Part shown: one piece after another, positions 210 through 29,186 of the stretch
Position numbering within the stretch: the stretch's first letter is position 1
Layout of the letters: each line of letters begins with the position of its first letter
Virus record (IMG/VR): IMGVR_UViG_3300007352_000398
Length of the DNA stretch: 30,441 nucleotides
Reading direction: 5' to 3' (one strand)
From: a virus
Notes under the pieces: generated by a model
What the model was told of the DNA's origin: nothing
The model's input: the letters and a program-made list of their open reading frames with translations, nothing else
The model's database searches: none
Translations under genes and position numbers: made by a program

Positions 210-998
210 ATGAGTGCAGATAATCTTGGCGATAGAATGAAGTCTTACGAAGCGGCTTTTGATTTTACGCTTCCTCAGCAATTACCATTGATTCTCAGAT
301 TAGATGGTAGGGCGTTTCACAGTTTTACGCGCAGAATTAAATTAGCACGACCTGTCGATGAAATTTTTCACCAGGCAATGGTAAAAACTACAATTACTTT
401 GTGCGAAGAAATCTCAAATGCTCGATTTGGGTATACACAAAGTGATGAAATTTCTATCCTTATTTATCCAAAGTACTTTACTTCTGATCCCTGGTTTGGA
501 AATCGTTTACAGAAAATGATTTCAGCTAGTGCCAGTCTAGCTAGCATAACTTTTGTGCAAGAATTACTGGCGGGCCCCTATGCTGACCGCCTTAAACAAA
601 TTAACAATATACCAACGTTCGATTCACGAATATTCATTGTACCTGCGCATGATGTAAACAACGTATTTTTGTGGCGACAACGCGATGCTTCAAAAAATTC
701 TGTAAGTATGTTTGCTGAACATCATTTAAACAGAACCACTATAGAAAATAAAAATACAACTGAAAGAATACAAATGCTATTGGACATTGGAGTAGACTGG
801 AATGCACTGCCATCATGGCAGCGAATAGGAACGGGAGTTATTAAAGAATTCTTTTCTACCGAAATCGCTGAAAACGATGGCTCTGTTAAAACTGTTATTC
901 GGACCAGATGGTCACCAATTGAGTTAAAAGATTTTTATCAAGATTCCTCACAAATTAATAAATTTTTAACTATACCCACAATGAAAACTGACAGTTAG
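210..998 (+). CDS. tRNA(His) guanylyltransferase Thg1 / Thg1-like protein (3'-5' nucleotidyltransferase)
   Basis: Family motifs LGDRMKSYE, RLDGRAFHSFT, YTQSDEISI, FDSR, WRQRDA..NS. Confidence 0.93.
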   Translation: MSADNLGDRMKSYEAAFDFTLPQQLPLILRLDGRAFHSFTRRIKLARPVDEIFHQAMVKTTITLCEEISNARFGYTQSDEISILIYPKYFTSDPWFGNRLQKMISASASLASITFVQELLAGPYADRLKQINNIPTFDSRIFIVPAHDVNNVFLWRQRDASKNSVSMFAEHHLNRTTIENKNTTERIQMLLDIGVDWNALPSWQRIGTGVIKEFFSTEIAENDGSVKTVIRTRWSPIELKDFYQDSSQINKFLTIPTMKTDS

Positions 999-5583: not shown

Positions 5584-5656
5584 GGCCCCGTCGTCTAACG
5601 GCTTAGGACGCCAGGTTTTCAACCTGAAGATGGGAGTTCGATTCTCCTCGGGGTCA
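5584..5656 (+). tRNA. tRNA-Glu (anticodon TTC), CCA not encoded
   Basis: Cloverleaf: acceptor GGCCCCG/CGGGGTC, anticodon arm CAGG-TTTTCAA-CCTG, T arm GGGAG-TTCGATT-CTCCT. Confidence 0.93.
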
Positions 5657-5678
5657 GTAAAAATCGCGCAATGCGCGT

Positions 5679-5808
5679 CAGGCCAGTGAATAGTGATGTT
5701 GTCGCCTATTCATGATGCCTGGGTTGGAGGGGGCGGCCCACACATCGCCTTGTGTGAGAGTGGGCTAAGCATACCTAAAAGCTCACCAGGCCGCCCCCTC
5801 CCGTAACC
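5679..5808. ncRNA. Candidate structured non-coding RNA (hairpin plus three-way junction)
   Basis: Perfect 13-bp stem GGAGGGGGCGGCC (5726-5738)/GGCCGCCCCCTCC (5789-5801) enclosing CACACA/TGTGTG and TGGGCT/AGCTCA hairpins. Upstream hairpin CAGGC..TGAATAG/CTATTCA..GCCTG. Confidence 0.55.
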
Positions 5809-5817
5809 GATTAAAAT

Positions 5818-6006
5818 ATGATGAGTAAAGTTCCTAATGTTGGTGATAAAGCGATTGTTGATGATAATGAGGTTCGTGTGATTCGCATTATCAAAAACAA
5901 TCAAAATGAACCAGTGGTTTGTTGGGGGATGCACGAGACTGTGATTGGTGCGTGCATACCGAGTTTATGGGGCGAATGGTTAGAACGAAAACAATCAAGA
6001 ACTTGA
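5818..6006 (+). CDS. Small hypothetical protein
   Basis: 62-aa ORF filling the gap between the structured RNA and tRNA-Arg, with plausible composition. Confidence 0.55.
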   Translation: MMSKVPNVGDKAIVDDNEVRVIRIIKNNQNEPVVCWGMHETVIGACIPSLWGEWLERKQSRT

Positions 6007-6018
6007 TATAAGTTCTTT

Positions 6019-6091
6019 GCCCCCATGGCTCAATGGATAGAGCAACAGATTTCTAATCTGTAGGTTCCAGGTTCGAATCCTGGTGGGGGTA
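6019..6091 (+). tRNA. tRNA-Arg (anticodon TCT), CCA not encoded
   Basis: Acceptor GCCCCCA/TGGGGGT, D arm GCTC/GAGC, anticodon arm ACAGA-TTTCTAA-TCTGT, T arm CCAGG-TTCGAAT-CCTGG. Confidence 0.95.
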
Positions 6092-6682
6092 TTGACAATT
6101 AAAATTATATCTACCTTGGATGGTTTGATTACATATGACAGTAACTTTATCAGGCTCAATGAGATTCCTGATTATCTAGAAAAAACTAAAACTCTGCCCC
6201 TCAAACAACATAAAGTTATTATTCAAGGGATGGAATTCCGAGAAGCGCGTTTAACTTATTTTGCCGGCGACGCTGGTCTTAGCTACACTTATTCGGGTGT
6301 TTTGCGTCACGCCGAACCGTGGTCCCCAGAACTAATAGAATTTAGGAACAAGCTTAAAGACCGAACCGGCTATGATTTCAATAGCTGCTTAATTAACTAC
6401 TATCGTGATGGCACAGATTCAATATCTGCACATTCTGATAATGAACAAGGGTTGGGACCAAACAGAGATAATATCGTCATCGCTTCCATTTCACTAGGTG
6501 GCCCCCGCAGAATGATCTTTAAGCACCGCCCAACAAAAGAAGTTATCGAACTTAATCTTGAATCAGGCAGTTTATTACTAATGGAGGGCAAAACACAACG
6601 ATTTTGGTCTCACGAAATTCCTAAAACAAAGACAAATGTTAAGGAGAGAATCTCTCTAACATACCGATTAATACTGTCATAG
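6092..6682 (+). CDS. alkB: AlkB-family 2OG-Fe(II) dioxygenase (ALKBH2/3-like alkylation repair)
   Basis: FNSCLINYYRDG.DSISAHSD (HxD), IASISLG, WSHEIPK, RISLTYR. The track start at 6083 lies inside the tRNA, so TTG 6092 or 6116 is more likely. Confidence 0.9.
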   Translation: MTIKIISTLDGLITYDSNFIRLNEIPDYLEKTKTLPLKQHKVIIQGMEFREARLTYFAGDAGLSYTYSGVLRHAEPWSPELIEFRNKLKDRTGYDFNSCLINYYRDGTDSISAHSDNEQGLGPNRDNIVIASISLGGPRRMIFKHRPTKEVIELNLESGSLLLMEGKTQRFWSHEIPKTKTNVKERISLTYRLILS

Positions 6683-7529: not shown

Positions 7530-8639
7530 CTATTCTGCCAAATCTATATCGTATGAATTAAGCATTTCATCTAATTGTGCCGCAAGTCTATTAGCTTCGT
7601 TGGTCATAGACGACATATAACGTTGAGTCGTCGCCAAAGATTGATGTCCCAATCGAGCGCGGATCTCCTCAGCAGAGGCTCCTGCTTTCAAGTAAGACTC
7701 AGCATGCAAATGGCGTAAAGAGTGGACAGAAATTTTAGTTGGATCTAATCCTGCTTTTTTAGCTAACTTTTTCATTATTCTAAGCATTGATCGTTGTGCT
7801 AAAGGTTGGTTAGGATCGACTAATTGTCGTGCCCCTCCCTTCCCCGGGATTGCAGTAAATAGATAAGTTTCAGGTAAAATTTTTTTATTAAAGTCAGCCC
7901 CCCATCGTTTTGTCAAATAAGCGATTAAATGCTCTTGTAACTTTTCTGGTAACTCATCGTTCATCTCTTTTTGACCTTTTCTAATAAATGAGTATGTTGG
8001 TGGGTTTCTATTAAAGTTAAGATTTTTCCATTGTAACTGTAACCACTCCGAATTTCGGCGTCCTGTAACAAAGTATCCATATATCAGACAAAAATCCCTC
8101 AATCCGTTTAATGTTTTAGTGTTAATTTGAGCTAATATTTTATTTAACGACTCAATACTTATTTTTTTTGATCGACTATATTTTTCTACAGCCACACGTT
8201 GATGTAATGCATCGACTGGATTAATTGCAACCAACGGAGGACTGCCGTCCAAGCCAGGTTTTTGCAAAAACTTATAAAAAGCAGAAATAATACTTATCTT
8301 ATTTTGGAGTGAAGCCTTTTCATGCGGAACGCACGCTTGGGTTGACCCTCCTGGAAGAACACCTCCGACACCTCCGGTCAATTCTAAATCAGTTTTCCAC
8401 AACAAAATGTCGGCACCAATTGCATTTAAAGGAGTTATTTGAGTTACATTGCGTAAAAATCTAACAAAGTGATCGATGACAATTTTATAATGGCGTTTAG
8501 TGTTTTCGTTACTAAGTGATAACAAGTAATAACAGTAGGCAGTTAAAAAGAGATCCTCTGGTTTAAAACTCTTGTCTAATCGGGAGGGATGCAGATTCCT
8601 TGCGTACAGTTGTTGAGCTATTTGCATATGATTTGGCAT
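7530..8639 (-). CDS. Tyrosine recombinase/integrase (XerC/D-like)
   Basis: LRD...TGRRNSE (Arg I), RKG, HSLRH, LGHQSLATTQRY catalytic residues, with an N-terminal SAM-like region. Confidence 0.92.
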   Translation of the reverse strand: MPNHMQIAQQLYARNLHPSRLDKSFKPEDLFLTAYCYYLLSLSNENTKRHYKIVIDHFVRFLRNVTQITPLNAIGADILLWKTDLELTGGVGGVLPGGSTQACVPHEKASLQNKISIISAFYKFLQKPGLDGSPPLVAINPVDALHQRVAVEKYSRSKKISIESLNKILAQINTKTLNGLRDFCLIYGYFVTGRRNSEWLQLQWKNLNFNRNPPTYSFIRKGQKEMNDELPEKLQEHLIAYLTKRWGADFNKKILPETYLFTAIPGKGGARQLVDPNQPLAQRSMLRIMKKLAKKAGLDPTKISVHSLRHLHAESYLKAGASAEEIRARLGHQSLATTQRYMSSMTNEANRLAAQLDEMLNSYDIDLAE

Positions 8640-8713
8640 GCAGTAATTTTATCACGTCCCGTTCAAGAGTTGCAGATTGAAACTTATTAACTAATATTCA
8701 ATTAGGAATAAAA

Positions 8714-10036
8714 ATGAGTATTGATGTCATGTACCGTCTCAGTCCCGAAGAAGTTGAACGTCAGTTAACAGAAATCATCGGTAACGCAAATTTAGATGAA
8801 ATTTTACTCGACAGAGAGCGGGTAAAACGTTTAAATTTTGAAGTTGGTGAGTTCGTGCAAGGACGCGTTGTTATCATTAGAAACGATCATGTTTATGTAG
8901 ACCTCAGTGCAAAGGAGGAAGGCCGTCTTAACTACTTTGAAGACGGATTCGTCAATGATGACCTTGATGTGGGGGACGAAGCCACATTTTTAGTTACAGC
9001 CGTTTCACCAGAAGGCACTATTCAATTATCAAGAAAAAATGTTGAAACACTCTTGCATGAGCGTGAAATATTAGCAACCCTCCAAACTGGAGACGTTGTA
9101 ACTGGCACCCTGATTCAAAACAGTAAAAATGGGTGGATTGTTGATATAAACGGACTTAAAGCATTTCTGCCGTCGAGTCAAGAATTTTTAGTCATTCCAA
9201 ACGAGGGTGTAGAAACTTTAATTGGAACAATTATTGAAGCTGAGGTAGATTCAATTGAGAATAATTCTGTTACATTGACAAGAAAAGCATTTGCTTCACA
9301 AATTAAACGCGCAACCAAAGCCAATTTTATAGCTCAACTACAAGTGGCTGACATTGTTCCTGGTACTATTAAAAACTTAACAGATTTTGGTGTATTCATT
9401 CAAATAGCCCCCGGAATAATCGGTTTTTGTCATGTTTCCGACGCCGGCAAACAACAACTAGAACCTGGACAACAAGTTAAGTGCCGTATACTAAAAATTG
9501 ATCGCGAAAAGAATAGAATTTCATTGGGACTAAAACAGGTGACAGAACCTACTTGGACTGAAATTATCAGTAAGTACAATATTGATGATAAAGTTGTTGC
9601 GACTGTTAAATCGATAGTTCCATATGGTGCATTTTTAGAGATTGAACCCGGCATTAGTGGTTTAGTACATGTCAGTGATTTGAGCTGGTCTGACCACATT
9701 AAACACCCCAAAGAAGTGTTGAAGGAGGGCGAAAAAGTCGAGGTAGTCATTTTAAGTATTGATCCAGATAAACAACATCTATCCCTGGGTTTGAAGCAGG
9801 TCAGCGCAGATCCATGGGAAGGTGTAACAAATAAATACTTTATTGGTCAATCCCTGCCGGGCCGAGTTGTAAGTAAATTAAAATTTGGAATTTTTATCGA
9901 ACTTGAAAAGGGATTAGAGGGTTTAGCCCATCACACTGTTAAATCAAAAAATTTGAAGATTAATGATTTGACTGATGTGACGATTCTAAGAATCGATGTT
10001 GGTCGTAAGAAAATATCGTTAGCCATTGAGGATTAA
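8714..10036 (+). CDS. rpsA: 30S ribosomal protein bS1 homolog with five S1 repeats
   Basis: Repeats with AFLPSSQ, GTIKNLTDFGVF, RISLGLKQ, YGAFLEIEPGISGLVHVSDLSW, DPWE..KY, FGIFIELEKGLEGL. AGGA SD upstream. Confidence 0.92.
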   Translation: MSIDVMYRLSPEEVERQLTEIIGNANLDEILLDRERVKRLNFEVGEFVQGRVVIIRNDHVYVDLSAKEEGRLNYFEDGFVNDDLDVGDEATFLVTAVSPEGTIQLSRKNVETLLHEREILATLQTGDVVTGTLIQNSKNGWIVDINGLKAFLPSSQEFLVIPNEGVETLIGTIIEAEVDSIENNSVTLTRKAFASQIKRATKANFIAQLQVADIVPGTIKNLTDFGVFIQIAPGIIGFCHVSDAGKQQLEPGQQVKCRILKIDREKNRISLGLKQVTEPTWTEIISKYNIDDKVVATVKSIVPYGAFLEIEPGISGLVHVSDLSWSDHIKHPKEVLKEGEKVEVVILSIDPDKQHLSLGLKQVSADPWEGVTNKYFIGQSLPGRVVSKLKFGIFIELEKGLEGLAHHTVKSKNLKINDLTDVTILRIDVGRKKISLAIED

Positions 10037-10056
10037 ACTTTTGCTACAATTAAGCC

Positions 10057-10686
10057 ATGTTTGGATTTTTTGGAAAAGGTGCAATGGTTCCAGCCCCGGT
10101 GGCTTTAGTAGATCAAGCGCAACCTATGCCAACAGAAATGCCTCTTCTACCAGAGGAACCAGAATTAGAACCACTGCCTCCCGAGCCTCTTTTAACTGAA
10201 ACAGATATAATTCAAGAACAAATAGCCAAACTGCGCGCAGCAGTTGAAGCGAAGAAAGCTTCTAAAGAAGCGCAAATTAAAGCCGTACAAGATACGCAGA
10301 AAAAGCAGGCGGCTTATGGCCGAGATGTTCTTCAATTACGCCCGGAAAAGTCGGGTTATGCAACCGAATCAGAAAAAATAATGGGCGGACAAACTGGTTA
10401 TTCCAAATCTTTAGGTTCAGTTTCCGATGAAGAACTTACATCCGTCGCAACTGATGTACACCAAGCAACTTTGTTAGTGCAGCAACTTACAAAGGACGTT
10501 AAAGCCGGGGTTGCATCGAAATCAGAACTCAAGCGTGCTTTACAAGCTCTGCAGGAAAAATCAGATCAAGCTAAACAATTGGCCTCAGAATTAAGTGGTT
10601 TTGACTTAAGTAATTGGAAACACAAACTAATTGTTTTAATTATGTCTGCGACTGTAATTTATTTAGTCTTTAGACACTTCCGCTAA
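10057..10686 (+). CDS. Coiled-coil protein with a C-terminal membrane anchor
   Basis: Pro-rich N-terminus, helical Q/K/A core, LIVLIMSATVIYLVF-RHFR terminus. TTTTGCTACAAT lies 6 nt upstream. Confidence 0.78.
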   Translation: MFGFFGKGAMVPAPVALVDQAQPMPTEMPLLPEEPELEPLPPEPLLTETDIIQEQIAKLRAAVEAKKASKEAQIKAVQDTQKKQAAYGRDVLQLRPEKSGYATESEKIMGGQTGYSKSLGSVSDEELTSVATDVHQATLLVQQLTKDVKAGVASKSELKRALQALQEKSDQAKQLASELSGFDLSNWKHKLIVLIMSATVIYLVFRHFR

Positions 10687-10705
10687 CTTTGTTAGAATAA
10701 CAGCG

Positions 10706-11059
10706 ATGACTAAAAAGGTCTCACCTCTCGAACTACTTGTGGCTGCACATGCAGCAGATCCGCTACCTCCAGTCAAAATAATCCCAAAAAACAGATTTCC
10801 TTCAGAAATCACTTTGATTGAAGATTACCCCGAATCCTCTATTCAACCGACAGCAGTTACAAATAATTTAACAATTAATGTCAGTATGAACTTCGATAAA
10901 GAAACTCTTAATCAAGCCCTTCAAAAATCAGCCGAGGTAGCAAAAAATATCGCGGCGGTGGGTGCCGCATTTATTGGAACAGCGATGATGCTCAGTGGAA
11001 AAAAATTAGAAAAAGTTAAAATCCCACTTACCCCAAAAATAAAGGTCCCGCGAATTTAA
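10706..11059 (+). CDS. Hypothetical protein with a hydrophobic segment and basic tail
   Basis: IAAVGAAFIGTAMMLSG followed by a K-rich end. CTTTGTTAGAAT lies 7 nt upstream. Confidence 0.7.
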   Translation: MTKKVSPLELLVAAHAADPLPPVKIIPKNRFPSEITLIEDYPESSIQPTAVTNNLTINVSMNFDKETLNQALQKSAEVAKNIAAVGAAFIGTAMMLSGKKLEKVKIPLTPKIKVPRI

Positions 11060-11511
11060 ATCAAAGCCAATAAAAGCGGTAGCAGCTGTCTGGCTGTTGT
11101 AATAGCTATATCCTTTATTAATGTCCAGGCATCTGCATAAAATTCATCTAATTTTCTCTTAGCATCTATTAATGCTAAAGTTCCTTTATCCATCGCATCA
11201 ATTATATCGTCTGCCGTTCCTACCGCTCTCAAGTATGTGTCAGCAGCGGCTTGCTGCTTTCCAATTGCTAATTGTTGAATAAACAAAACAAAAGCATCAG
11301 CACCCATGCCTACAATACGATTTTTATTTGCCTCAATTACCCGAATCGCCTGAATAGATGACGTTTTAACAGGGGTTTCCCAAGTTGCGACTTCTACATG
11401 AGAATAAAGCTCTTCAATAAGAGAATCGAACCAAGCACCATCGGTTACGGCCTTTGAATTTTTCTCTAGCTGCTTAGCGGCGCGTTCTAAAATGAAATCT
11501 GAAAATGGCAT
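11056..11511 (-). CDS. Hypothetical helical protein with a hydrophobic C-terminus
   Basis: 151-aa ORF immediately downstream of the lipoprotein gene. Confidence 0.75.
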   Translation of the reverse strand: MPFSDFILERAAKQLEKNSKAVTDGAWFDSLIEELYSHVEVATWETPVKTSSIQAIRVIEANKNRIVGMGADAFVLFIQQLAIGKQQAAADTYLRAVGTADDIIDAMDKGTLALIDAKRKLDEFYADAWTLIKDIAITTARQLLPLLLALI

Positions 11512-11514
11512 AAA

Positions 11515-11868
11515 TCACCGAGGAGGGGTTCCAGTGTCACCGGAGTCACTTGGATTTATTATTAGCCGGCTTCCAGTTTCTTCTGTTGAGAGTCCCATTT
11601 TCTTTTTGGCCTCCCAAGCTTCAACGTCTGGTGGCAATGGCTCGTTATTTAAAGCAAAGTTCTGTGCGTGCCACGCTCGTCTACATGCCCTAATAAAATT
11701 CTGTTCCTGTTCACGCGTGCTAATGCCAGCATTCATTAACGTTAAAAAATTATCGCATAACTGAGCGTTATTAGCAGCGTTTGTTTTAGCCTCTTCTGGA
11801 ACTGTAAAAAAGGCACAGCCACTAACAGATAATGTTAGCACTAAAACAAGAATTTGAAGAAATTTCAT
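11515..11868 (-). CDS. Putative lipoprotein
   Basis: Signal peptide MKFLQILVLVLTLSVSG|C with a lipobox Cys. Confidence 0.75.
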   Translation of the reverse strand: MKFLQILVLVLTLSVSGCAFFTVPEEAKTNAANNAQLCDNFLTLMNAGISTREQEQNFIRACRRAWHAQNFALNNEPLPPDVEAWEAKKKMGLSTEETGSRLIINPSDSGDTGTPPR

Positions 11869-11932
11869 AAATTAATGATAGTCAATTGTTAATAGCGATG
11901 TCAAACAAAGGAATTTTGTTAAACTAATGTAT

Positions 11933-12682
11933 ATGTTCCGGCACTATAATCCTACCGTTAACTGGAATCCGACCATAACAGATTTCTCTGTTCAAAATCT
12001 TAACAAAGTATCCTTTTTTGACTCAGTCGCCAAAGCACGAGCTTTCCTGCTACAAGTCTCTTGTTTATCCAAGCAGCAATTAAACGAACCATCTTTGCAA
12101 GCGAAGATATCAGCTGCAGAAAAAATTATAGCACGCGCCGATAAACGAAATGCGCGACGCCGCCGCCGCAGGCAAGAAAAACGCGGCCTTTCTGCCTCTG
12201 GAGCCGAGTGCTTAGATGCAATTGCTGAGGCGAGGCAAGCATGTGGGCCTAACGTTGTTTGTTATTCAGAGACAAACAATAAAAAAGTATTAACACCTCC
12301 AACCCCGCAGTACTTCGGCCCAAACTGGGAAGAAGTTCTCGGCCCTAAAGGTGAGGTTATAAAGTTTAAGATAGAATACTACAAAACTGGTCCTGATCAA
12401 GGAACTATTAAAAACAGAACCCGCTCAAAAGCCTCCCCAAAACCAGGGGACATAATTCTTGATTTAACTTCTGGGCTTAAAGCGTGGAAAGTTACCACAA
12501 GTGGTAAGCGGACTCCGATTACTCCGACGCGTACGATGGAAGATGAATATAAAAATTCATATTTGTACAAAGTCCGGCAATTGGCTGCGGGTCAAATATC
12601 AACAGCGCAATTTGCTGATTTCCTTAAACAACCAGTCGCTGCAAAAAAGAGAAACCTTAAGCGTCATAAAAAGAAAAAATGA
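11933..12682 (+). CDS. Basic hypothetical protein
   Basis: RRRRR tract and KKRNLKRHKKKK terminus. ATG 11933 (7 nt after TTTTGTTAAACT) is preferred over 11927. Confidence 0.72.
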   Translation: MFRHYNPTVNWNPTITDFSVQNLNKVSFFDSVAKARAFLLQVSCLSKQQLNEPSLQAKISAAEKIIARADKRNARRRRRRQEKRGLSASGAECLDAIAEARQACGPNVVCYSETNNKKVLTPPTPQYFGPNWEEVLGPKGEVIKFKIEYYKTGPDQGTIKNRTRSKASPKPGDIILDLTSGLKAWKVTTSGKRTPITPTRTMEDEYKNSYLYKVRQLAAGQISTAQFADFLKQPVAAKKRNLKRHKKKK

Positions 12683-12728
12683 TGAAAAATACCAAAAAAT
12701 GTTATACTAATTGCGAGGAGTCTATATA

Positions 12729-13532
12729 ATGGCACGTAGAAAACGTAAAGTTCGTGGTAATTATCGCAAGCCAACTCCAAAAGTGGCTAAAAGATACTTA
12801 GCTTATTGGGCTAAGAAAGGTATTAAACGCGCCCAAGATATTCCTGAGGGCAAATCAAAAGAGCAAACTCACATTCAGCGTGTACGCTTCCAAGAAGCAG
12901 CGGACGTAATGCGTAAATGGGGGCTTTCCAAGCGCGGTCAAAAGCACAGTGCTCAAGAAGATGCTCTCGACAATTACAAGAAACAACTGAAGAAATTTAA
13001 AGCTTTGAAAAAGAAAAAGGCGTTCAAGCATGCAGGATTGCCAGCAAAGTATGTCGCGCCTAAAAAGCCAAAAATAGGAAAACTACCTGGTCCCAAATCG
13101 TGGCGTGGTGGTAACTTCTTCCGCACTAACAAAACTAAGGCTCGTCGCTATCTTTCGGGTGTTTGGAATCGCGGCAAGCACCCCCTTTCTGAACTAGCAG
13201 GTAATGTTGGTGTTTGGAATCAATTTACCCCTCGTGTTCAGGAAGCTATGATGCTACTAGGGCAAGAAGAAAGCCTAAAGCTGTGGAATCGCGCTAAAGC
13301 AAACCGTGTTAAACGTGCAGAGAAAGAAGCAAAGAAACAAAAAGAAGCGGAAGCTCGTAAGAAGAAAGCCGATACCAAAAAGCTAGCTAAACTTAATGCA
13401 GTTATTGAAAAGGCTCAAAAGGCTAAGGCTGACCTCAAAAAGTCGAAAAAGGCGGTTGCAACCGTTGCTAGAATGTTCCGTAGCAAGCGCAAGAGTCGTC
13501 GCACCCGTAGGACACGCAGAGGCCGCCGCTAA
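12729..13532 (+). CDS. Extremely Lys/Arg-rich, histone/protamine-like protein
   Basis: ATG 12729 after GAGGAG. MARRKRKVRG...RSKRKSRRTRRTRRGRR. Confidence 0.8.
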   Translation: MARRKRKVRGNYRKPTPKVAKRYLAYWAKKGIKRAQDIPEGKSKEQTHIQRVRFQEAADVMRKWGLSKRGQKHSAQEDALDNYKKQLKKFKALKKKKAFKHAGLPAKYVAPKKPKIGKLPGPKSWRGGNFFRTNKTKARRYLSGVWNRGKHPLSELAGNVGVWNQFTPRVQEAMMLLGQEESLKLWNRAKANRVKRAEKEAKKQKEAEARKKKADTKKLAKLNAVIEKAQKAKADLKKSKKAVATVARMFRSKRKSRRTRRTRRGRR

Positions 13533-13556
13533 CATCCGTTAAGTTATACTTCTCAC

Positions 13557-13584
13557 AAAATAGCTGCCGCTGGCAGCTATTTTT
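13557..13584. terminator. Bidirectional intrinsic terminator between convergent genes
   Basis: AAAATAGCTGCC-GCT-GGCAGCTATTTT hairpin with A/T tracts on both sides. Confidence 0.75.
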
Positions 13585-14320
13585 GTTTATTTGGTAGTGT
13601 TTTTTGATTTGGGCTCAAATTCAACTCGGAGGCTGCTACAATCCCAGCTTTATACCCATCGCTACTAGACTTCTCGACAATGAAATCTTTAACTTTAGTT
13701 TTCATATTTTGAGAAACCCAGTTTTTAGCATCCTCAACACGTGTATCCAATTTTTGGAGAGCATAAGAAATGTCCTCAATATCTTTTGCCGATTTTGCAT
13801 TTTTAATTTCTGATTCCCTTACCTGTTTATTTACTAATGCCAGCCGAAAATCAATAGCTTCAATTGCTCCCAAATAAAAGCTTTCAATATATGTTTTAGG
13901 AGGATATGCATTACGTTTCTCCTTATAGCTAACAATCTCTGTTAAGCACAGTCGATTCAACTCATTAACCAAATAAGTATACAGTGCCTGCACTGAAGAT
14001 ATGTCTGATTCTTCACCAACAAGGAGTAATTGGTTATCTGTTGTATAATTTTCACTGACGACAACATAACAACCGTTATGCTTAGTAATAGTGGCAATTA
14101 AACAAATTTTCCAGTTACTCGGCAACCCGCTATCGTTGAGATAATGAGAACCCACCTGTGACTCTAAATTAAGAAGTACTTTCTCAATTCGATGTTTTTC
14201 CATCAAAGACTGTGCTTTCCCAGCGGCAGCAGCAGCCTCTTCAACATTTGAGTTTTTCTTTGTATCAGCGAGCAGTAATAGTTTTTTTATCTTTTCAATA
14301 ATTTTTTTGCGTTCATCCAC
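13577..14320 (-). CDS. DUF2786-domain protein
   Basis: N-terminal IIEKIKKLLLLA...EAAAAAGKAQSLMEKH signature and a GYKAG C-terminal motif. Confidence 0.8.
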   Translation of the reverse strand: MDERKKIIEKIKKLLLLADTKKNSNVEEAAAAAGKAQSLMEKHRIEKVLLNLESQVGSHYLNDSGLPSNWKICLIATITKHNGCYVVVSENYTTDNQLLLVGEESDISSVQALYTYLVNELNRLCLTEIVSYKEKRNAYPPKTYIESFYLGAIEAIDFRLALVNKQVRESEIKNAKSAKDIEDISYALQKLDTRVEDAKNWVSQNMKTKVKDFIVEKSSSDGYKAGIVAASELNLSPNQKTLPNKQK

Positions 14321-14535
14321 TATTCATCTTCTTTTTTGAATCCAGACTTTCGTCGATTGCGCTGTGCCTTTCGCAATTCACGCCGTTTAACATCACTAGG
14401 TTTTTCATATCGCTCACGTGCACGGCACTCTTTTCTAATTCCCGCTTTCTCACACATTTTTTTAAAGCGACGTAATGCCTTTTCAATGTTTTCGTCTTTC
14501 CCTACAACAACTTTAACTCGTGCTTCGCGTGCCAT
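14320..14535 (-). CDS. rpsU: 30S ribosomal protein bS21
   Basis: ENIEKALRRFKK..EKAGI..E.R.RERYEKPS..RR. AAGGAG SD, and the start is coupled to the upstream stop (TAATG). Confidence 0.93.
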   Translation of the reverse strand: MAREARVKVVVGKDENIEKALRRFKKMCEKAGIRKECRARERYEKPSDVKRRELRKAQRNRRKSGFKKEDE

Positions 14536-15137
14536 TAACTCTCCTTCGGTAAAAGGATATCATTTTTTTCTAATCTTTCAACACCAGCGGGAGTAAGTCG
14601 GTACCCGGTGTCATGTCCCCAACAGTCCCAACCAGCCCTTTCTCGCGTAGCAAAAATTTCTAAATAAGGACCACTAAAATTAATTTCTAGCCAATCTTGA
14701 ATATTTTCAGGCTTCTTTGAGTGCTTCTTCCTCGCGGGTGCATAAAAAATACGATCATCCCCAATTAATAATCCAAGATGTTTACTCTTCTTGGGAGGGC
14801 TGACTTTTCCTTTTCGCCCTATTAAAATAAACTCCGAGGTTGCTTGCGCCCAAAACCCCATTCCTGTCACAATCTCTCCTGAAGAAGGAACTGTTTTAAT
14901 CCAAGGCCACCCTGTAACATATTCAAAACCCCACTCCTTTAGCAACTCTACACCTTGATCCAAACAAGACCAAATACACCACATCACTAGGAGACAATTC
15001 TTATCAGCCCACGTTTCTACCGGAAGTCTTTGGAGTTCATCATAAGTCATTTTAGGATACTGTGGAGCCCCGTGTGCAGGTTTTGAATAATTATTCAATT
15101 TCCACGGCGGATCAGCGACTATTACTTTATATTTCAT
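14535..15137 (-). CDS. MT-A70 family N6-adenine methyltransferase
   Basis: YKVIVADPPW, WGFEY, WIKT, HSKKPE, YLEIFATR, GWDCWG. Confidence 0.9.
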   Translation of the reverse strand: MKYKVIVADPPWKLNNYSKPAHGAPQYPKMTYDELQRLPVETWADKNCLLVMWCIWSCLDQGVELLKEWGFEYVTGWPWIKTVPSSGEIVTGMGFWAQATSEFILIGRKGKVSPPKKSKHLGLLIGDDRIFYAPARKKHSKKPENIQDWLEINFSGPYLEIFATRERAGWDCWGHDTGYRLTPAGVERLEKNDILLPKES

Positions 15138-18286: not shown

Positions 18287-18481
18287 ATGAGTTATCAATG
18301 GTGGGCACTACTTATTTTTGGAATATATGCAGGGTACCACCTCAAGGTCTTAGCTAGTAAGGATCCAAAAAGCACACTCGTCGGCCTCGATAGTGGAGTG
18401 ATTATTGGATCCCTTCTTTATTTTATCGGTCGTATTATTCAATTAAATCAAGAAGCGTCTAAATCATTAGAAAAAAAGTAG
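18287..18481 (+). CDS. Small two-helix membrane protein
   Basis: Two hydrophobic segments. TATAAT lies 6 nt upstream of the ATG. Confidence 0.6.
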   Translation: MSYQWWALLIFGIYAGYHLKVLASKDPKSTLVGLDSGVIIGSLLYFIGRIIQLNQEASKSLEKK

Positions 18482-19398
18482 TCTGCTTCGTAAAATTTAA
18501 ACCCACACCGCTCAGCAAAAGTTCGGTCAGTTGTCATATCACCAACAAAAATTGTTTCCGAAGGATTCAGTTTATATTTTTCGATGAACTCAATGCCGAA
18601 ACCAGGCATAGGTTTACGACAGAAGCAACTTATAGGAAAAGAACCGTGTGGGCAAAATCGATAATCAATTTCTACACCCAATAGTGCATTAGTTCTTTCG
18701 AAACAAGCGTCCGCAATTTCACGAGTGAGTTTCTTTTTTGCGATGCCAGATTGATTACTAATACCTAACAACAGATATCCATTTTGTTTATATCTCTGAA
18801 TTACTTCTCGCCGACCGTCTATAACTTGAATATCGTCGGGACTAGCTGGATAAATTTCCCCACTTTTAGTTTTACGAAGTGTGCCATCGTAATCTAAGAT
18901 TAATGCTTTCTTTGAATATGATTCATCATATTTCCGAATAAACGGAACTGTAACCAAGGTATCAAACCCCTCGTCAATTGAAGGCTCCTCAAAAGCTTTT
19001 CTATAAGTAAAAATAACTGTTGCTGGAAAACAGTTTGGATCTGTTTTAGGCATCTCGTCTGGAGAAAGCACTCTCCCATACTTACTAATCATACGCTTGC
19101 ATGCATTTACTTGAGCGTCTTCAGCAGTAGCTTGAAGCCAATGACAAATAATTTTAAATTTGTACTTTTTAGCGATATCAATAAAAGGCTTTCGCTGAGC
19201 CGCAGTTGCAAAGGTGTTATCCAATACGAAGTTGTTGCAACCTTCTTGAATTTTTTTCTCAATATAAGGAACTAAATCCACGATTCTTCCACCGAGAATA
19301 TCTCGGTTCACACGATAATAAGAAGGAAACTCTCTAAGCGCATACGTCGTCTTAGACGATGCAGGAAAACCAATGACTAGCACAATCTCATTAATCAC
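18448..19398 (-). CDS. Polynucleotide kinase/3'-phosphatase-like protein (P-loop kinase plus HAD-IIIA phosphatase)
   Basis: GFPASSKTT P-loop, VNRD, LDNT. HAD motifs DYDGT, SNQSG, RKPMPG, FVGD...D. Confidence 0.85.
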   Translation of the reverse strand: MINEIVLVIGFPASSKTTYALREFPSYYRVNRDILGGRIVDLVPYIEKKIQEGCNNFVLDNTFATAAQRKPFIDIAKKYKFKIICHWLQATAEDAQVNACKRMISKYGRVLSPDEMPKTDPNCFPATVIFTYRKAFEEPSIDEGFDTLVTVPFIRKYDESYSKKALILDYDGTLRKTKSGEIYPASPDDIQVIDGRREVIQRYKQNGYLLLGISNQSGIAKKKLTREIADACFERTNALLGVEIDYRFCPHGSFPISCFCRKPMPGFGIEFIEKYKLNPSETIFVGDMTTDRTFAERCGFKFYEADYFFSNDLDAS

Positions 19399-21607: not shown

Positions 21608-21778
21608 ATGCGTCACACATTTGCCGATCCAGCCACAGTCACATCAACCTCTCCGTCAGTCTCCCCCTCGGACAAAGCGTCAGCAATATTAAATGAAGCA
21701 ACGAGTAAACTTAAAAAGCTGATACTAATTATCGTCCTACTGAGTGCGGGCCTAATACTTTACAAAAAAATGTCCTAA
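21608..21778 (+). CDS. Small C-terminally anchored membrane protein
   Basis: KLKKLILIIVLLSAGLILYKK. ATG 21608 lies 6 nt after TATAAT. Confidence 0.62.
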   Translation: MRHTFADPATVTSTSPSVSPSDKASAILNEATSKLKKLILIIVLLSAGLILYKKMS

Positions 21779-23040
21779 AAATAAACCTCTACGCGCTTCT
21801 TAATTATTTGTTTACGTTCAGGGCCAATAGATAACCAAGTAATAGGAGTGCATAACTCATCTTCTACGAAAGAAACATATTCTTTAATCTCATTTGGAAA
21901 ATCGTCCCATGTTTTAATACTTTGAGAGCTAATTTTAGGGAAAGGCGCAAATTCCTTATAAACCGGTGTTACACAACTCCAATCAAAGAATCGCGAATCC
22001 CTCTGATAATCAATTGCTATCTTCAATGGCTCTATCTCGAATAAAGAATCAAGCTTAGTCATTACTAATTCATCGGTTTCAGTCAAAGCAACAGCATGTT
22101 TTAGTTGATACAAATCTAACCAACCACAACGTCTTGGACGACCAGTGGTTGCGCCGTACTCACTTGCTTGCTCACGTAACCGTGCCGCAAGATCTGTTGG
22201 CATTTCTGTGGGAAAAGGACCAGTGCCTATTCTTGTGGTATAGGCTTTAACCACTCCAACAACATTTTCTACTTCAGAAAGTGGTACGCCCATACTTTGG
22301 GTAATTGCAGTGGTTAAAGTGCTAGTAGACGTAACATAAGGATATGTACCCTGATTAATATCGAGCATCACCCCTTGGGCACCCTCAAATAATATTCTCT
22401 TGCCACTGCCGTATAACTCCCTTTCAACGTCAACCACATATGGATCAAGACGTTCTTTAAACGACATCAGCTCCTTGAATATTTCATCGGGACACAACTT
22501 AGTTGACTCTTGATACCCACTGATGATTGCTTGCTTTTCAATTACATTTACTTCGATGAGTTCGCGTAACCGTTTTTCGTTATACAAATCAACTATTCTT
22601 ATTCCAAATCGGGAAACAAAATCAGCATAACATGGGCCAATCCCACGCTTTGTTGTCCCTATTTTTTCAGTCTTAGCTTCACGAATAGTGTCGATTATTT
22701 TGTGATAAGGCAAAATAAGATGGCATAGATGACTTATCTTAAGATGCGAACAATCAACACCAAGAGTAGTTAACTCATCTATTTCTTTAAATAAAGAGGG
22801 TAGATCAACAATTACTCCGCTACCTATTATGGGAATAACCGTTTTTGTTAAAATACTTGAGGGAATTATGTGTAATACATATTTATGCCCATCAACAATA
22901 ACTGTGTGTCCCGCATTAGGGCCACCATTAAATCGCGCAACGCAATCAAAGTTGGGCGCAAATATATCTAATATCTTCCCTTTGCCCTCATCCCCCCACT
23001 GTAATCCGATAACAGCCGCATGATTTGTTGGTATTCGCAT
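21775..23040 (-). CDS. purA: Adenylosuccinate synthetase
   Basis: GLQWGDEGKGK, GGPNAGHT, IGTTKRGIGP, FEGAQG, GTYPYVTS, EYGATTGRPRRCGWLD. Confidence 0.97.
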   Translation of the reverse strand: MRIPTNHAAVIGLQWGDEGKGKILDIFAPNFDCVARFNGGPNAGHTVIVDGHKYVLHIIPSSILTKTVIPIIGSGVIVDLPSLFKEIDELTTLGVDCSHLKISHLCHLILPYHKIIDTIREAKTEKIGTTKRGIGPCYADFVSRFGIRIVDLYNEKRLRELIEVNVIEKQAIISGYQESTKLCPDEIFKELMSFKERLDPYVVDVERELYGSGKRILFEGAQGVMLDINQGTYPYVTSTSTLTTAITQSMGVPLSEVENVVGVVKAYTTRIGTGPFPTEMPTDLAARLREQASEYGATTGRPRRCGWLDLYQLKHAVALTETDELVMTKLDSLFEIEPLKIAIDYQRDSRFFDWSCVTPVYKEFAPFPKISSQSIKTWDDFPNEIKEYVSFVEDELCTPITWLSIGPERKQIIKKRVEVYF

Positions 23041-23066
23041 GTCTGCATGGTAAACAGCAAGCTTAT

Positions 23067-23726
23067 TCAGTCAACTAAGACTAGTTTAACTTTTTTAATA
23101 CCGGCCATCCACGGCTTGTCTATATCACCTAACCAATCGCTTAGTGTAGGAATTTTTTGGTATGTTCTTAGCACATGCTGCTCCGCAACCTCTCTAGTTG
23201 CAACTACACGCCCGCTGTTATTTAAAATAGATACACCAAAAATATCCTCAACAACATAGATACCAAAAGCATTGTGAAATATAACTCGACCGACACTGCC
23301 ATATTTAAGGGGGTCGTTCATTAACCGATGAATTTCTAAATAATCCTCGACCTTACCCCCAAAATTTTTTGCGCTAATTTCGGCATGTCGTTCACAATTT
23401 AATCCAGGGCGGGTTATCAGTTCATTATCGTGCTTAAATTCTGCTAACCAATCTGTTAATTTAGGCAAAAATCCCAAATCTTCTAAAATATGCTGCTTGG
23501 CCACATCCGTAGTTTCTACCTTCTTACCCTCAATATTTATAAGTTGCTTATCAAATATCCTACAAATAAGCTCAACTCCATAGTCAGAATGATAAATAAT
23601 ACGATGAGACATCTTAGGATGTGCGCTCTTTGATTGATCTATCTTGCAATGAATTTTTTGATAATCGGAAATAGCCCCGCCGAAGTGTCTAACACTGTTT
23701 TCAGCATGATAAACTGGTTTAGCCAT
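23067..23726 (-). CDS. Protein made of two tandem His-rich domains (DUF6915-like)
   Basis: Repeated HAE.S...FGG...DY..IH ... H...G ... VA.QH.L ... P.L.DWL units. Confidence 0.75.
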   Translation of the reverse strand: MAKPVYHAENSVRHFGGAISDYQKIHCKIDQSKSAHPKMSHRIIYHSDYGVELICRIFDKQLINIEGKKVETTDVAKQHILEDLGFLPKLTDWLAEFKHDNELITRPGLNCERHAEISAKNFGGKVEDYLEIHRLMNDPLKYGSVGRVIFHNAFGIYVVEDIFGVSILNNSGRVVATREVAEQHVLRTYQKIPTLSDWLGDIDKPWMAGIKKVKLVLVD

Positions 23727-24267
23727 GCTTTTCTTTCATTTGTGCGACCAAATTTCCTAGTTCATGAATTACGTGAAAATCAGCAGAATAAATTCTATCC
23801 AATCCCGCTGTCAAGGCTATGCATAGATCCCCGGACTCTTTTAAATACGTTGTCGTAAATTTATCAGCCATGTCAATTTCAAGCAAGTTGTCAATGCGAT
23901 CCAAAGCTTTTATGAATTTAATTGGCGTGGGTATTTGACTGAGACGATCAGCTTCTTTTGCTTTTCGCTCCTTGCGCGAAAGCGCAGGATATTTGGTTTT
24001 GGTAAATTCATTAGTCAACATTTCAACGTAAGTGGTGATCTTCTCTCCGAAAACATCAACCATTTCTTGTCGCGTAACCCCTGTATCTTCTAAGACATCA
24101 TGCATAAAGGCGGCAGCAACCAGCTCAGGAGTTGTGCATTCTAAAATCATAGTTCGTCCTGCGACTCTAGCAGGGTGGTATATATAAGGCAACGTATTAT
24201 ATTTACGCTTTTGAGTGCCATGAGCTTCTCGGGCGAAGGTTGCAGCAGTTAAAATAATATTATCCAT
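23719..24267 (-). CDS. HD-domain (p)ppGpp hydrolase-like protein (SpoT/MESH1-type small alarmone hydrolase)
   Basis: FAREAHGTQKRK, PYIYHP, AAFMHDVLEDT, IKALDRIDNL. Confidence 0.85.
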   Translation of the reverse strand: MDNIILTAATFAREAHGTQKRKYNTLPYIYHPARVAGRTMILECTTPELVAAAFMHDVLEDTGVTRQEMVDVFGEKITTYVEMLTNEFTKTKYPALSRKERKAKEADRLSQIPTPIKFIKALDRIDNLLEIDMADKFTTTYLKESGDLCIALTAGLDRIYSADFHVIHELGNLVAQMKEKHG

Positions 24268-25369: not shown

Positions 25370-25870
25370 TTAGTCATCCAACTGCTTCGACCAATTCTTT
25401 TGATCAAATATCTTTGCTAACGACGGATTCTTCATCAAGCGTTGTTTGGGTCCAGCATACCCCCCTATCAAATTTAGCATCAAGGTGACATCCCACATCT
25501 GGGATCCATCATCCGTCACCCCTTCATACTCATCGAGGATCGTATCAACTCGGGCGGTGATGAATAACTTGTTAGGATCAGCAGGGTCACGATGAAAAAT
25601 TGCACGACCGCACGTCATTGAAGCGGCCTTTTCCATCGCCATTTGCATCTTTATACGGAGATAAGGATCTTCCTCGTCGTCGTCATCATCCTCATCACCA
25701 TCATCATTATCATCACTACCGTCGTCAGCATCATCGTCATCGGTCTCAAGATCCTCTTCAGGATCATCAGAAAGCTTTTCTGAATCAAGAGGAATTTCTT
25801 GGTCGATAGGCTCATCGCCCTTCTTAGGGGTGCTTGCCGCAGGTTCAAAACGAATGATGCGATTCATCAC
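25370..25870 (-). CDS. Hypothetical protein with a poly-Asp/Glu tract
   Basis: GAGGAG SD and a long D/E run followed by a globular-looking region. Confidence 0.72.
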   Translation of the reverse strand: MMNRIIRFEPAASTPKKGDEPIDQEIPLDSEKLSDDPEEDLETDDDDADDGSDDNDDGDEDDDDDEEDPYLRIKMQMAMEKAASMTCGRAIFHRDPADPNKLFITARVDTILDEYEGVTDDGSQMWDVTLMLNLIGGYAGPKQRLMKNPSLAKIFDQKNWSKQLDD

Positions 25871-25900
25871 AACTCCTCAGCACAAGGGTATCACGCAACC

Positions 25901-26116
25901 CTAAACATTCAAGGCAGCTAGCGACACCCTTGCATCGTTAAGAAGTCGCGATTGGTCAACATCCTTGATGCTGTGTGCAAGTCTGTAGAGGACCACATCA
26001 AGTGAATGTAGTATGTAGGCCGCCGGCACGTCGGCGTTCATCAACTGCTCTGCATACTGCTCTGCGAGAGCTTCCGCACAGGTCAATTGTTCGTAGTGCC
26101 CCATGCGGTGTTCCAT
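25901..26116 (-). CDS. Small hypothetical protein
   Basis: Starts 3 nt after the SNF2 stop on the same strand. Confidence 0.55.
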   Translation of the reverse strand: MEHRMGHYEQLTCAEALAEQYAEQLMNADVPAAYILHSLDVVLYRLAHSIKDVDQSRLLNDARVSLAALNV

Positions 26117-26119
26117 GTC

Positions 26120-28126: not shown

Positions 28127-28414
28127 TTGCTCTCGACTTAGGGAGAAGCATACCAAACCTGGGCCTCTTGCCAAGAGCAAGCAAACTTCGTGCCACGGCC
28201 ATGGACCCTCGGGGACTTCGGCCTCATCCGATGATACCCACGATGATGTGTCTTAACAGACGACGATGGACAACGGATGATGTCGATGGCATTCTATACA
28301 TCATCGTACCCCGATACCTGGCATATCCTTTGCTTACGTTGGCTCTTGCCAACATCGATAGGTCATGCTATACTAGCCCGGCTCTGTCTGCAACCCCCTA
28401 CCATCCGAGGTCTT

Positions 28415-29128
28415 ATGGCCCCCAAGGCAACCTCCCACAAACACACTCCCCCTGTCAAGCCTGCGCTGGGAACCACCGCTCTTGGTGGTGTCCTGGGTAA
28501 GTTGGCCGCGACCAACAAACCCGAGGCCAAGAGCAAGAGTGACAAGCCAATTGTCAACATCCCGGAGTTGGCCGACCAGTTCCAGGAACTCCAGAAGGTG
28601 AACGCCAACATCAAGGCTCTCACCGGCCGCAAGGAAGAGTTGCAGGCGGAAGTTTATCCGCCCATCGAAGCGCAGCGTCGCGCCATCTGTGCCGCACATC
28701 GTGAGTACATCGGAAGTGTTCGCGTGATGGCAGGCCCCAAGGCCGGCATCGGAACCTACTTCATCACCAACCGCTTCACGGGACTGGATGCTGGAGATGC
28801 AGAACAGGTTTCAGCCGCCAAGGATGTCATCCGCGAGACCTTGAATTGTGACGAACAGACCGCCGTGGAGTGGCTCAACACAAACATGAAGGCGGCGGCC
28901 GAAGTCAAGTTCAACGAGGCGGCCCTGGAAAACCCAGAAGTTCTCAAGATCATCGAAGAGCATCTCCAGGGACATGTCACTGTCAAGGTCAAGATGGTGC
29001 CGACCAAGGATCTGGCAGAAACAGCCAGCTACGAACCGGAGAAACAGGCCGTGCTCGATGCATTGGAGGGTGCTCGTCTCGTTCAACGCTACTCGGCAAC
29101 GCTCAAGCCCGCCGGCAAAACCGACTAA
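28415..29128 (+). CDS. Hypothetical protein
   Basis: ATG 28415 after a GAGGT SD and a TTGCCA-17-TATACT promoter, with GC-rich third codon positions. Confidence 0.78.
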   Translation: MAPKATSHKHTPPVKPALGTTALGGVLGKLAATNKPEAKSKSDKPIVNIPELADQFQELQKVNANIKALTGRKEELQAEVYPPIEAQRRAICAAHREYIGSVRVMAGPKAGIGTYFITNRFTGLDAGDAEQVSAAKDVIRETLNCDEQTAVEWLNTNMKAAAEVKFNEAALENPEVLKIIEEHLQGHVTVKVKMVPTKDLAETASYEPEKQAVLDALEGARLVQRYSATLKPAGKTD

Positions 29129-29137
29129 CACATCATC

Positions 29138-29175
29138 TACGCGGCATGGATGTTATTTTTCATCCATGCCGCGTA
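29138..29175. repeat. Perfect 15-bp inverted repeat (terminator-like hairpin)
   Basis: TACGCGGCATGGATG-TTATTTTT-CATCCATGCCGCGTA. Confidence 0.85.
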
Positions 29176-29186
29176 AATGTGTACCC

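Follow-up and report, generated by a model that had tools for sequence, protein, structure and literature searches.

The window analyzed here, a 30,441-nt stretch of DNA from IMG/VR virus record IMGVR_UViG_3300007352_000398, encodes both a bS1-like protein and a bS21 (Table 1) on what is a very large, uncultured, virus-like DNA element with phage-like gene content. Both genes are SD-led, and they share one genome with a second initiation class: many of the element's genes are predicted, from promoter position, to be leaderless. There is, in our judgment, about an even chance that the two proteins are a matched pair supporting the element's SD-led, abundant proteins. The two genes share a single gene block in all seven related genomes examined, at S1 identities down to 50%, and no other gene of that block shows purifying selection as strong: their dN/dS values (0.012 for S1, 0.007 for S21) are the lowest among the 10 genes compared; the small genes between S1 and the basic proteins have values of 0.04-0.07.

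Table 1. Features of the S1/S21 block and its surroundings (positions in the window; +, - strand;., no strand).
Feature	Position	Strand	Basis
Tyrosine recombinase	7530..8639	-	Pfam Phage_integrase
S1 promoter-like elements and short leader	8670..8713	+	Read from sequence
bS1-like protein, 440 aa	8714..10036	+	Pfam, NCBIfam, clade profile, AlphaFold2
Gene without known function	10057..10686	+	No Pfam/PHROG match
Gene without known function	10706..11059	+	No Pfam/PHROG match
Gene without known function	11056..11511	-	No Pfam/PHROG match
Gene without known function	11515..11868	-	No Pfam/PHROG match
First basic protein	11933..12682	+	TGTTAAACT box; gene call in relative L092 agrees
Second, very basic protein (N-terminus MARRKRK)	12730..13532	+	TGTTATACT box, GAGGAG
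Hairpin (12 bp, with T runs) between two converging genes, basic protein and DUF2786	13557..13583	.	Sequence
DUF2786/DUF7168 protein	13577..14320	-	Pfam, phrog_421
bS21, 71 aa, short-tail form	14320..14535	-	PF01165, TIGR00030
MT-A70 DNA methyltransferase	14535..15137	-	Pfam
S21 leader and promoter-like site, inside the MT-A70 gene end	14541..14581	-	Sequence

The bS1 gene claimed in an earlier note on this DNA was confirmed by profile scores: Pfam S1 matched its product at 154.8 bits, and NCBIfam rpsA models scored up to 326 bits, every one under its curated cut-off (best, 326.1 bits for NF004952 versus 524; TIGR00717, 285.4 bits versus 577). The first ATG was taken as the true start because relatives have the same N-terminus. 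The protein comprises N-terminal helices and five OB (S1) domains (residues 47-106, 128-189, 214-272, 293-359, and 380-438) and lacks domain 6; an AlphaFold2 model likewise contains five OB barrels (pLDDT 82.5). A profile of its clade is colinear with E. coli S1 over residues 12-392 in one stretch (256.6 bits), matching E. coli domains 1-5 in order, ribosome-docking domains 1-2 included. In E. coli, S1 is anchored to uS2 by an N-terminal helix with Phe5/Phe9, by Lys43, and by Phe79 (PMC10123108). The residue aligned with Lys43, K67, is invariant in the clade, while the position of Phe79 is a gap in the clade alignment, the Phe5/Phe9 pattern is not recognizable there, and the predicted N-terminal helices (residues 11-22 and 27-32, at low confidence) have an aromatic spacing unlike that of E. 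coli. Loop deletions in domains 3 and 5 are shared by the whole clade, and conservation within the protein is highest in the RNA-binding domains.

The bS21 gene proposed in the same note also stands, on the minus strand, which had been left unstated. PF01165 scored 69.7 bits (cut-off 27), with profile positions 1-55 of 55 covered, and TIGR00030 scored 64.1 bits, above its cut-off of 28.95. The protein matches bS21 chains from solved ribosomes; in the alignment to a 71-aa bS21 chain, its R22 falls opposite residue 17 and its K26 opposite residue 21, and these columns hold R and K/R, respectively, throughout the lineage. In E. coli bS21, Arg17 and Arg21 are the SD-contacting residues (PMC10123108). 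C-terminal tails vary inside the lineage, several relatives having a conserved R-N-W-I-F-T-H-P-K-L that the window copy lacks, and no named close relative of this S21 was found.

The tyrosine recombinase adjoins S1 divergently in all relatives, a methyltransferase (MT-A70 or Dam) lies upstream of S21 in every relative examined, and the DUF2786 gene lies 3' of S21 in 7/7 genomes, immediately or after one inserted gene. Here the MT-A70 stop and the S21 start overlap (TAATG), as do the S21 stop and the GTG start of the DUF2786 gene (TAGTG); the hairpin that follows is probably a two-way terminator closing the S21 operon. Pfam and PHROG searches of the four small genes between S1 and the basic proteins returned no match.

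The proposal that leaderless genes are common here was confirmed by an excess of TANNNT boxes at a fixed distance from starts: the motif stands exactly 6 nt upstream in 13 of 39 window genes versus 1.7% of 1017 control ATGs (binomial p=4e-14), and at 5-7 nt in 16 of 39. Among 50 start-proximal boxes from the window and five relatives, 39 (78%) had a -35 element (at least 4 of 6 positions matching) or a TG extended -10, versus 18% of other TANNNT boxes (p=7e-20). The tyrosine recombinase (TAAAAT, 6 nt, ATG) has such a leaderless-type start, as do, judging by their upstream sequences, three of the four small genes. Such a peak was absent from rpsA neighborhoods of bacteria from the phyla with the nearest S1, where the count was 54 of 821 genes and 6 nt was not a modal distance.

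The S1 and S21 genes belong to the other class, as had been claimed. Upstream of S1 are TTGCAG (8670-8675), a 16-nt spacer, TAATAT (8692-8697), and AGGA (8704-8707), with the ATG 6 nt downstream. S21 is preceded on the minus strand by TTGAAA, 16 nt, and (TG)ATATCCT (promoter-like site 14581-14554), then GAAGGAG, in which AAGGAG (14546-14541) ends 5 nt upstream of the ATG. Both arrangements are kept in relative L092, and relatives' S21 genes have TTGACA-N16/17-TAnnnT and a GGAG leader. An SD-like motif precedes S1 in 7/7 genomes and S21 in 6-7 of 7, and no box stands 5-7 nt before either gene in the seven genomes; their -35/-10 promoter elements are like those of the leaderless genes. The strongest SD sites stand before very basic proteins. 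The two protamine-like genes of the window had both been described as SD-led, which holds for the second (TGTTATACT box, a leader of ~12-20 nt, and GAGGAG 8 nt before ATG 12730) and for its homologous positions in relatives, which are SD-led downstream of TGTATAAT-type boxes. It fails for the first, where the TGTTAAACT hexamer ends 7 nt before ATG 11933 and the gene looks leaderless.

In E. coli ribosomes, the SD/anti-SD helix is held by bS21 together with domain 2 of S1, whose domain 1 is also braced by bS21. Structural work describes bS21 as bridging S1 domain 1 and 16S rRNA and contacting the SD (PMC10123108). The element may carry its own functional, matched versions of bS1 and bS21, the two exchangeable proteins that lie together on the small subunit at the mRNA exit channel, with S1 domains 1-2 serving for ribosome docking and domains 3-5 for mRNA binding. 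Both would be transcribed from ordinary sigma-70-type promoters and translated via short SD leaders, an arrangement that would fit proteins required in ribosome-scale amounts. We infer their entry into ribosomes, and likewise any effect on mRNA choice: the viral proteins could join host 30S subunits without new ribosome assembly and there maintain or increase SD-dependent initiation. The gainers would be the minority SD-led class (very basic proteins, S1, S21, and others), whose products, judging by composition only, may be abundant or late. Leaderless genes would be translatable with or without S1 and S21, consistent with reports that leaderless translation does not require S1 or uS2 (PMC9031893) and that it improves on ribosomes without uS2, bS1, and bS21 (PMC10491246).

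Cellular systems offer partial parallels. In E. coli, ribosomes without uS2/bS1/bS21 favor leaderless mRNA such as lambda cI, for which S1 and S21 are dispensable or hindering, while SD-led mRNAs need them (PMC10491246, PMC9031893); that case involves protein loss and few leaderless mRNAs, whereas here the proteins are added by a mostly leaderless element. Bacteroidia largely ignore SD sequences genome-wide, yet their S21 gene has a strong SD, and the presence of bS21 on the ribosome decides SD-led reading (McNutt et al. 2023, PMC9976891; Jha et al., PMC7797042). The window shares an SD-led S21 gene in a largely non-SD gene set, but the Bacteroidia mechanism is anti-SD sequestration for cellular autoregulation. 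Furthermore, promoters here are TTGACA/TAnnnT rather than of Bacteroidia type, and the non-SD genes are leaderless where those of Bacteroidia are leadered. As in leaderless-rich bacteria (~60% leaderless in Deinococcus deserti, 20-25% in mycobacteria; PMC9031893), a -10 box stands right before the start codon in a large share of genes, though here in a mobile or viral genome of ~40% G+C.

Viruses were already known to encode S1 and S21, and Mizuno (2019) reportedly treated virus-encoded ribosomal proteins. Al-Shayeb et al. (2020) found S1-domain proteins with up to six domains, along with S21, in huge phages and proposed hijacking of initiation (PMC7162821). Like those phages, the present lineage consists of large uncultured virus-like genomes encoding S1 and S21; unlike them, it keeps both genes in one conserved block, is not in IMG/VR, and has S21 variants that differ C-terminally rather than via N-terminal extensions. 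The earlier note knew of no description of a link between leaderless genes and S1/S21 carriage, but the idea is not wholly new, since rpS1-carrying huge phages were already reported to have identifiable SD sequences only rarely (PMC7162821). Here, in contrast to those phages, -10 boxes standing 6 nt upstream of start codons account for the lack of SD sequences and point to leaderless mRNAs, and the S1 and S21 genes are themselves SD-led. Chen et al. (2022) described bS21 in Bacteroidetes lake phages and Pelagibacter phage HTVC008M and proposed host-ribosome substitution favoring viral transcripts late in infection (PMC9723584). That system also has a virus-encoded bS21, but the S21 proteins resemble those of the hosts, whereas the one here has no named close relative, and no S1 partner was reported. 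Microcystis jumbo phages PhiMa05/MaAM05 encode an S1 beside other translation genes (PMC13157829), but five further ribosomal proteins accompany it, and it clusters with Vampirovibrio proteins, unlike the S1 here, to which it is 28% identical over 74% of the latter's length.

Alternatively, viral S1 and S21 may replace the host's and alter mRNA choice, either by reducing initiation on the host's leadered mRNAs, an effect that leaderless viral mRNAs would escape, or by switching on a schedule from leaderless early genes to SD-led late ones. We consider this selective replacement unlikely, and the re-tuning of host ribosomes it supposes is purely conjectural. It would suit an S1 clade that is far from every sampled cellular S1 (identity <=36%), monophyletic (SH-aLRT 100), and on a long stem, as well as the conserved loop deletions in S1, the differing S21 tails, and the two initiation classes side by side in one genome; bS21 can gate SD use in Bacteroidia (PMC9976891), and phage S21 expression has been linked to late infection (PMC9723584). 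However, a decoy that disfavors host mRNAs fits poorly with RNA-binding domains being the most conserved part of S1, and there is no sign of separate timing, because the S1 and S21 promoters resemble those of the leaderless genes. The coupling is also not general: three other, independent phages with S1 or S21 lack a TANNNT peak at 6 nt (LR756504; MaAM05, with the leaderless pattern in 0/39 genes; and HTVC008M, with TANNNT at 6 nt in 1/48 genes and an SD in 25/48), and members of the lineage differ in their leaderless share near S1, from 2/25 to 15/38 (8 to 39%), yet all of them retain S1 and S21. The genomes compared do not show a causal link between S1/S21 carriage and leaderless genes. A fuller version is quite unlikely in our estimation: the pair would be a ribosome-reprogramming device tied to a two-mode gene design, in which leaderless genes are read by any ribosome, including S1/S21-stripped ones, and the SD-made viral pair then shifts or filters initiation, favoring SD-led abundant genes, opposing host leadered mRNAs, or both, with the variable S21 tail tuning anti-SD access.

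A role off the ribosome seems rather improbable. Host S1 is a cofactor for Q-beta replicase, T4 RegB, and lambda Beta, and the viral S1-like protein could similarly be a free RNA chaperone or viral-enzyme cofactor, with S21 acting together with its methyltransferase and DUF2786 neighbors. Such moonlighting by S1 has been listed (PMC13157829), and the sub-threshold rpsA scores, the unrecognizable uS2-anchoring aromatics, the constant DUF2786 gene downstream of S21, and the NCBI name of one relative, merely "S1 RNA-binding domain-containing protein," would all agree with it. Yet S1 keeps the layout of domains 1-2, aligned in order, whose role in E. coli is docking and not RNA binding; S21 scores fully, as an ordinary bS21 would; and every genome retains both members of a pair that is in mutual contact on the ribosome.

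In bacteria, too, rpsA and rpsU are found away from the main ribosomal operons, so the position of S1 and S21 outside any such operon, noted earlier, carries no weight. That the pair are simply the ribosomal proteins of a small cellular genome (a symbiont of ~0.5-0.9 Mb) is nonetheless highly improbable: relatives lie on contigs of 0.5-0.94 Mb, one is filed in a "Candidatus Parcubacteria" genome bin, and the window also encodes PurA, DinB, and tRNAs, but the S1 clade has no member among 185,579 species genomes, neither rRNA nor any further ribosomal protein is present in the window or six 21-kb neighborhoods, and about half of the genes belong to no family, the others being typical phage auxiliary genes (Thg1, HNH, MT-A70, DUF2786, PARP, PNK, ligases). 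The DNA thus does not look cellular. No relatives were found in IMG/VR, and no capsid or packaging gene was seen in the window.

For the role of virus-encoded ribosomal proteins, this element offers an unusually clean natural contrast within one genome, between a large leaderless class not expected to need S1 and S21 and a small SD-led class expected to need them. If the pair enters ribosomes and shifts the choice between these classes, it would be a direct case of a virus sorting mRNAs by ribosome composition. If it merely tops up the host supply, this would confirm the simpler view that S1 and S21 are the commonest phage ribosomal proteins because they are exchangeable. In either case, the five-domain S1 clade is a marker for an uncatalogued group of very large elements.

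The element's S1 and S21 (bS1-like and bS21 proteins) look like working ribosomal proteins that have been kept as a pair, rather than decoys, to judge from their sequences. Both genes proposed in the earlier note were present as called, and S21, placed on the minus strand, also passed both curated cut-offs. S1 gave strong matches to the Pfam S1 domain and to NCBIfam rpsA models, yet scored under their curated cut-offs. The profile of the S1 clade aligned to E. coli S1 residues 12-392 in a single stretch, and an AlphaFold2 model (pLDDT 82.5) contained two N-terminal helices followed by five OB barrels; the protein therefore appears to comprise domains 1-5 of the six-domain S1. In E. coli, two domains dock S1 on the ribosome (PMC10123108), and the predicted domains 1-2 of the element's protein correspond to both of them. 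Loop deletions in domains 3 and 5 are common to the entire clade. S21 has basic residues at both positions that contact the Shine-Dalgarno (SD) sequence in E. coli.

Features of the window and of contigs of related elements (L001, L004, L087)
Feature	Location	Strand	Remarks
Thg1-like enzyme	210-998		
Two tRNAs	5584-6092		
tRNA-Arg	6018-6092		
AlkB-type, longest ORF	6083-6682		GTG at 6083
S1	8714-10036	+	440 aa
Very basic protein	starts 12730		SD-led class
DUF2786/DUF7168 protein	13577-14320	-	phrog_421
S21	14320-14535	-	71 aa
Polynucleotide kinase/phosphatase	18448-19398		
PurA, DUF6915 protein, HD_4 (RelA/SpoT-type) hydrolase	21775-24267	-	three co-oriented genes
SNF2 helicase region	25400-29100		G+C ~55%
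Ligase-type adenylation domain	28974-29831		
S21, long form	L001:20156-20437	-	
S21, long form	L004:18370-18651	-	
S21	L087:15768-15977	-	69 aa
Over-long DUF2786 ORF spanning S21	L087:15002-15977	-	merged public call
SpoU methylase	L001:15155-15670		
QueC-like gene	L001:366-965		

The upstream regions of the window's genes include two classes. A TANNNT hexamer ended exactly 6 nt before the start in 13 of 39 genes, versus 1.7% of 1017 other ATGs (p=4e-14), and lay 5-7 nt before the start in 16 of 39. Of 50 hexamers in this position, pooled from the window and five relatives, 39 were accompanied by a -35 match or an extended -10 (TG) element, versus 18% of other TANNNT hexamers (p=7e-20), which suggests that they act like sigma-70-type promoters; transcripts from these start-adjacent -10 boxes would begin at the start codon, as predicted leaderless mRNAs. 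Eighty bacterial rpsA neighbourhoods had such a box at 54 of 821 genes and no 6-nt peak in any phylum group. In the second class, a TGnTAnnnT or TGTATAAT box is followed by a short leader with a strong AGGAG-type site. S1 is preceded by TTGCAG-N16-TAATAT and then AGGA 6 nt upstream of its ATG, and S21 by GAAGGAG 5 nt upstream of its ATG; the S21 start and the methyltransferase stop overlap, with a promoter-like site directly upstream. Among seven genomes (the window and six relatives), AGGA, GGTG, AGGTGA or AGGAG preceded S1 in all seven and a GGAG-type site preceded S21 in six to seven, even where S21 had its own promoter; the 6-nt box was never found at either start. S1 and S21 are thus predicted members of the leadered class, not the leaderless one. 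The suggestion that both are SD-led amid many predicted leaderless genes was borne out. The tyrosine recombinase and S1 diverge from a short common gap in all seven genomes (window 7530-8713; 74 nt in the window); the recombinase start was leaderless-type in the four genomes where it was read (window, L092, L001 and L004), and S1 was leadered in all seven.

Protein searches returned approximately 50 clusters of 435-454-aa S1 at 50-65% identity, on contigs of up to 938 kb; the next matches below this clade were cellular S1 proteins at ~35% identity, mostly of 560-600 aa. A quick maximum-likelihood tree recovered the clade as monophyletic (SH-aLRT 100), separated by ~1.9 changes per site from 26 bacterial S1 proteins and nested in none of the sampled phyla. 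The nearest cellular S1 proteins (32-36% identical) were scattered among Acidobacteriota, Bacteroidota, Myxococcota, Thermodesulfobacteriota, Planctomycetota and others. No clade member occurred in 185,579 species genomes, neither the single S1 sequence nor the clade profile recovered a relative from IMG/VR, and a DNA search of a phage collection found nothing; protein matches in that collection were mostly unannotated fragments resembling bacterial contamination. For S21, a profile search produced 10,854 matches. Six relatives keep the gene order recombinase, divergent S1, small unknown genes, two basic proteins, DUF2786, S21 and DNA methyltransferase. Against the closest relative, dN/dS was 0.012 for S1 and 0.007 for S21, compared with 0.017-0.066 for eight neighbouring genes (leaving out the second basic protein pair, which was mis-registered), although these ratios are rough because synonymous sites are saturated.

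The S21 proteins of some relatives (those of L001 and L004, and P0132 and P0134 in alignment A2) have 92-94 aa; their conserved tail reads R-(N/S)-W-(I/M)-F-(T/N)-H-P-K-L. It is missing from the window's copy and from the S21 proteins nearest to it, and other long S21 forms end differently. The tail may reach the anti-SD or S1; on the ribosome, S1 and S21 share a small, rRNA-mediated contact. Upstream of S21 there is always a DNA methyltransferase (MT-A70 or Dam), and in the window and six relatives the DUF2786/DUF7168 protein is always encoded a short way downstream, its start overlapping the S21 stop in the window; a literature search on DUF2786 function found nothing. The loss of S21 suggested by the gene table of L087 was rejected: the public call runs a DUF2786 ORF across S21, so the gene, which lies beneath it, looks absent. 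Automated tallies of viral S21 may miss copies hidden under mis-called ORFs in this way.

The 30.4-kb window has ~40% G+C overall (~55% across 25.4-29 kb), two tRNAs and phage-style auxiliary genes; about half of all its genes lack a family. Family matches comprised a Thg1-like enzyme, HNH endonuclease, AlkB, tyrosine recombinase, MT-A70 methyltransferase, DUF2786/DUF7168, DinB, kinase/phosphatase, WGR-PARP, PurA, HD hydrolase, a vWA protein, SNF2 helicase and ligase-type domains. The neighbours of the S1/S21 block include other RNA and translation-maintenance genes (in the window the Thg1-like enzyme, both tRNAs, the polynucleotide kinase/phosphatase and the ligase-type adenylation domain), to which relatives add the SpoU methylase and QueC-like gene, and the surroundings look like a neighbourhood of tRNA repair and translation support. 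The longest AlkB-type ORF begins inside tRNA-Arg, so its true start lies further downstream; a close relative's call is 155 aa. The full-length PurA is 44-49% identical to relatives' copies and, about equally, to cellular ones; a PurZ (Z-genome) identity was rejected, since the PurZ model gave 121 bits where its cut-off is 300, compared with 476 bits for PurA models. The SNF2 helicase is 45% identical to the copy adjoining S1 in L004, itself G+C-richer (46.5%), and therefore appears inherited; recent host DNA was rejected as the source of this segment, and the match to a G+C-richer relative suggests exchange within the group, not host capture.

The earlier note had further proposed a check of whether the leaderless share tracks S1/S21 carriage. 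The signal was missing in three independent carriers: a 636-kb huge phage with S21 (3 of 47 genes with the box, against a background of 3.3), MaAM05 with S1 (0/39) and HTVC008M with S21 (1/48). Among members of the lineage, the leaderless share around S1 varied from 2 of 25 genes in the related contig L086, where genes are mostly SD-led behind TATAAT boxes, to 15 of 38, with S1 and S21 always present. There is no support for a dependency between the two, although the test is weak because it used 21-kb samples from related genomes. Our literature search found no paper tying a leaderless viral genome to S1/S21 carriage. Virus-encoded S1/S21 and the idea of redirected initiation are already published, as is the observation that huge phages carrying rpS1 seldom show a recognisable SD (PMC7162821).

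Leaderless mRNAs do not require S1 and uS2 (PMC9031893) and are better read by ribosomes without uS2, bS1 and bS21 (PMC10491246). In the E. coli ribosome, bS21 touches the SD and supports domain 1 of S1, whose domain 2 holds the SD at its 5' end (PMC10123108). In Bacteroidia, bS21 governs SD visibility, and the one strong SD is that of the bS21 gene itself (PMC9976891); in phages, S21 has been linked with the late stage of infection (PMC9723584). S1 and S21 both work in SD-led initiation, and leaderless mRNAs can do without them; on the simplest account, then, they would support the SD-led minority of the element's proteins, which are probably abundant. Alternatively, they would simply maintain the supply of two exchangeable subunit proteins. 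Less probably, the pair would act as a selective switch or as a filter against the host, for which nothing here speaks. The SD leaders of S1 and S21 themselves are in line with a requirement for high output.
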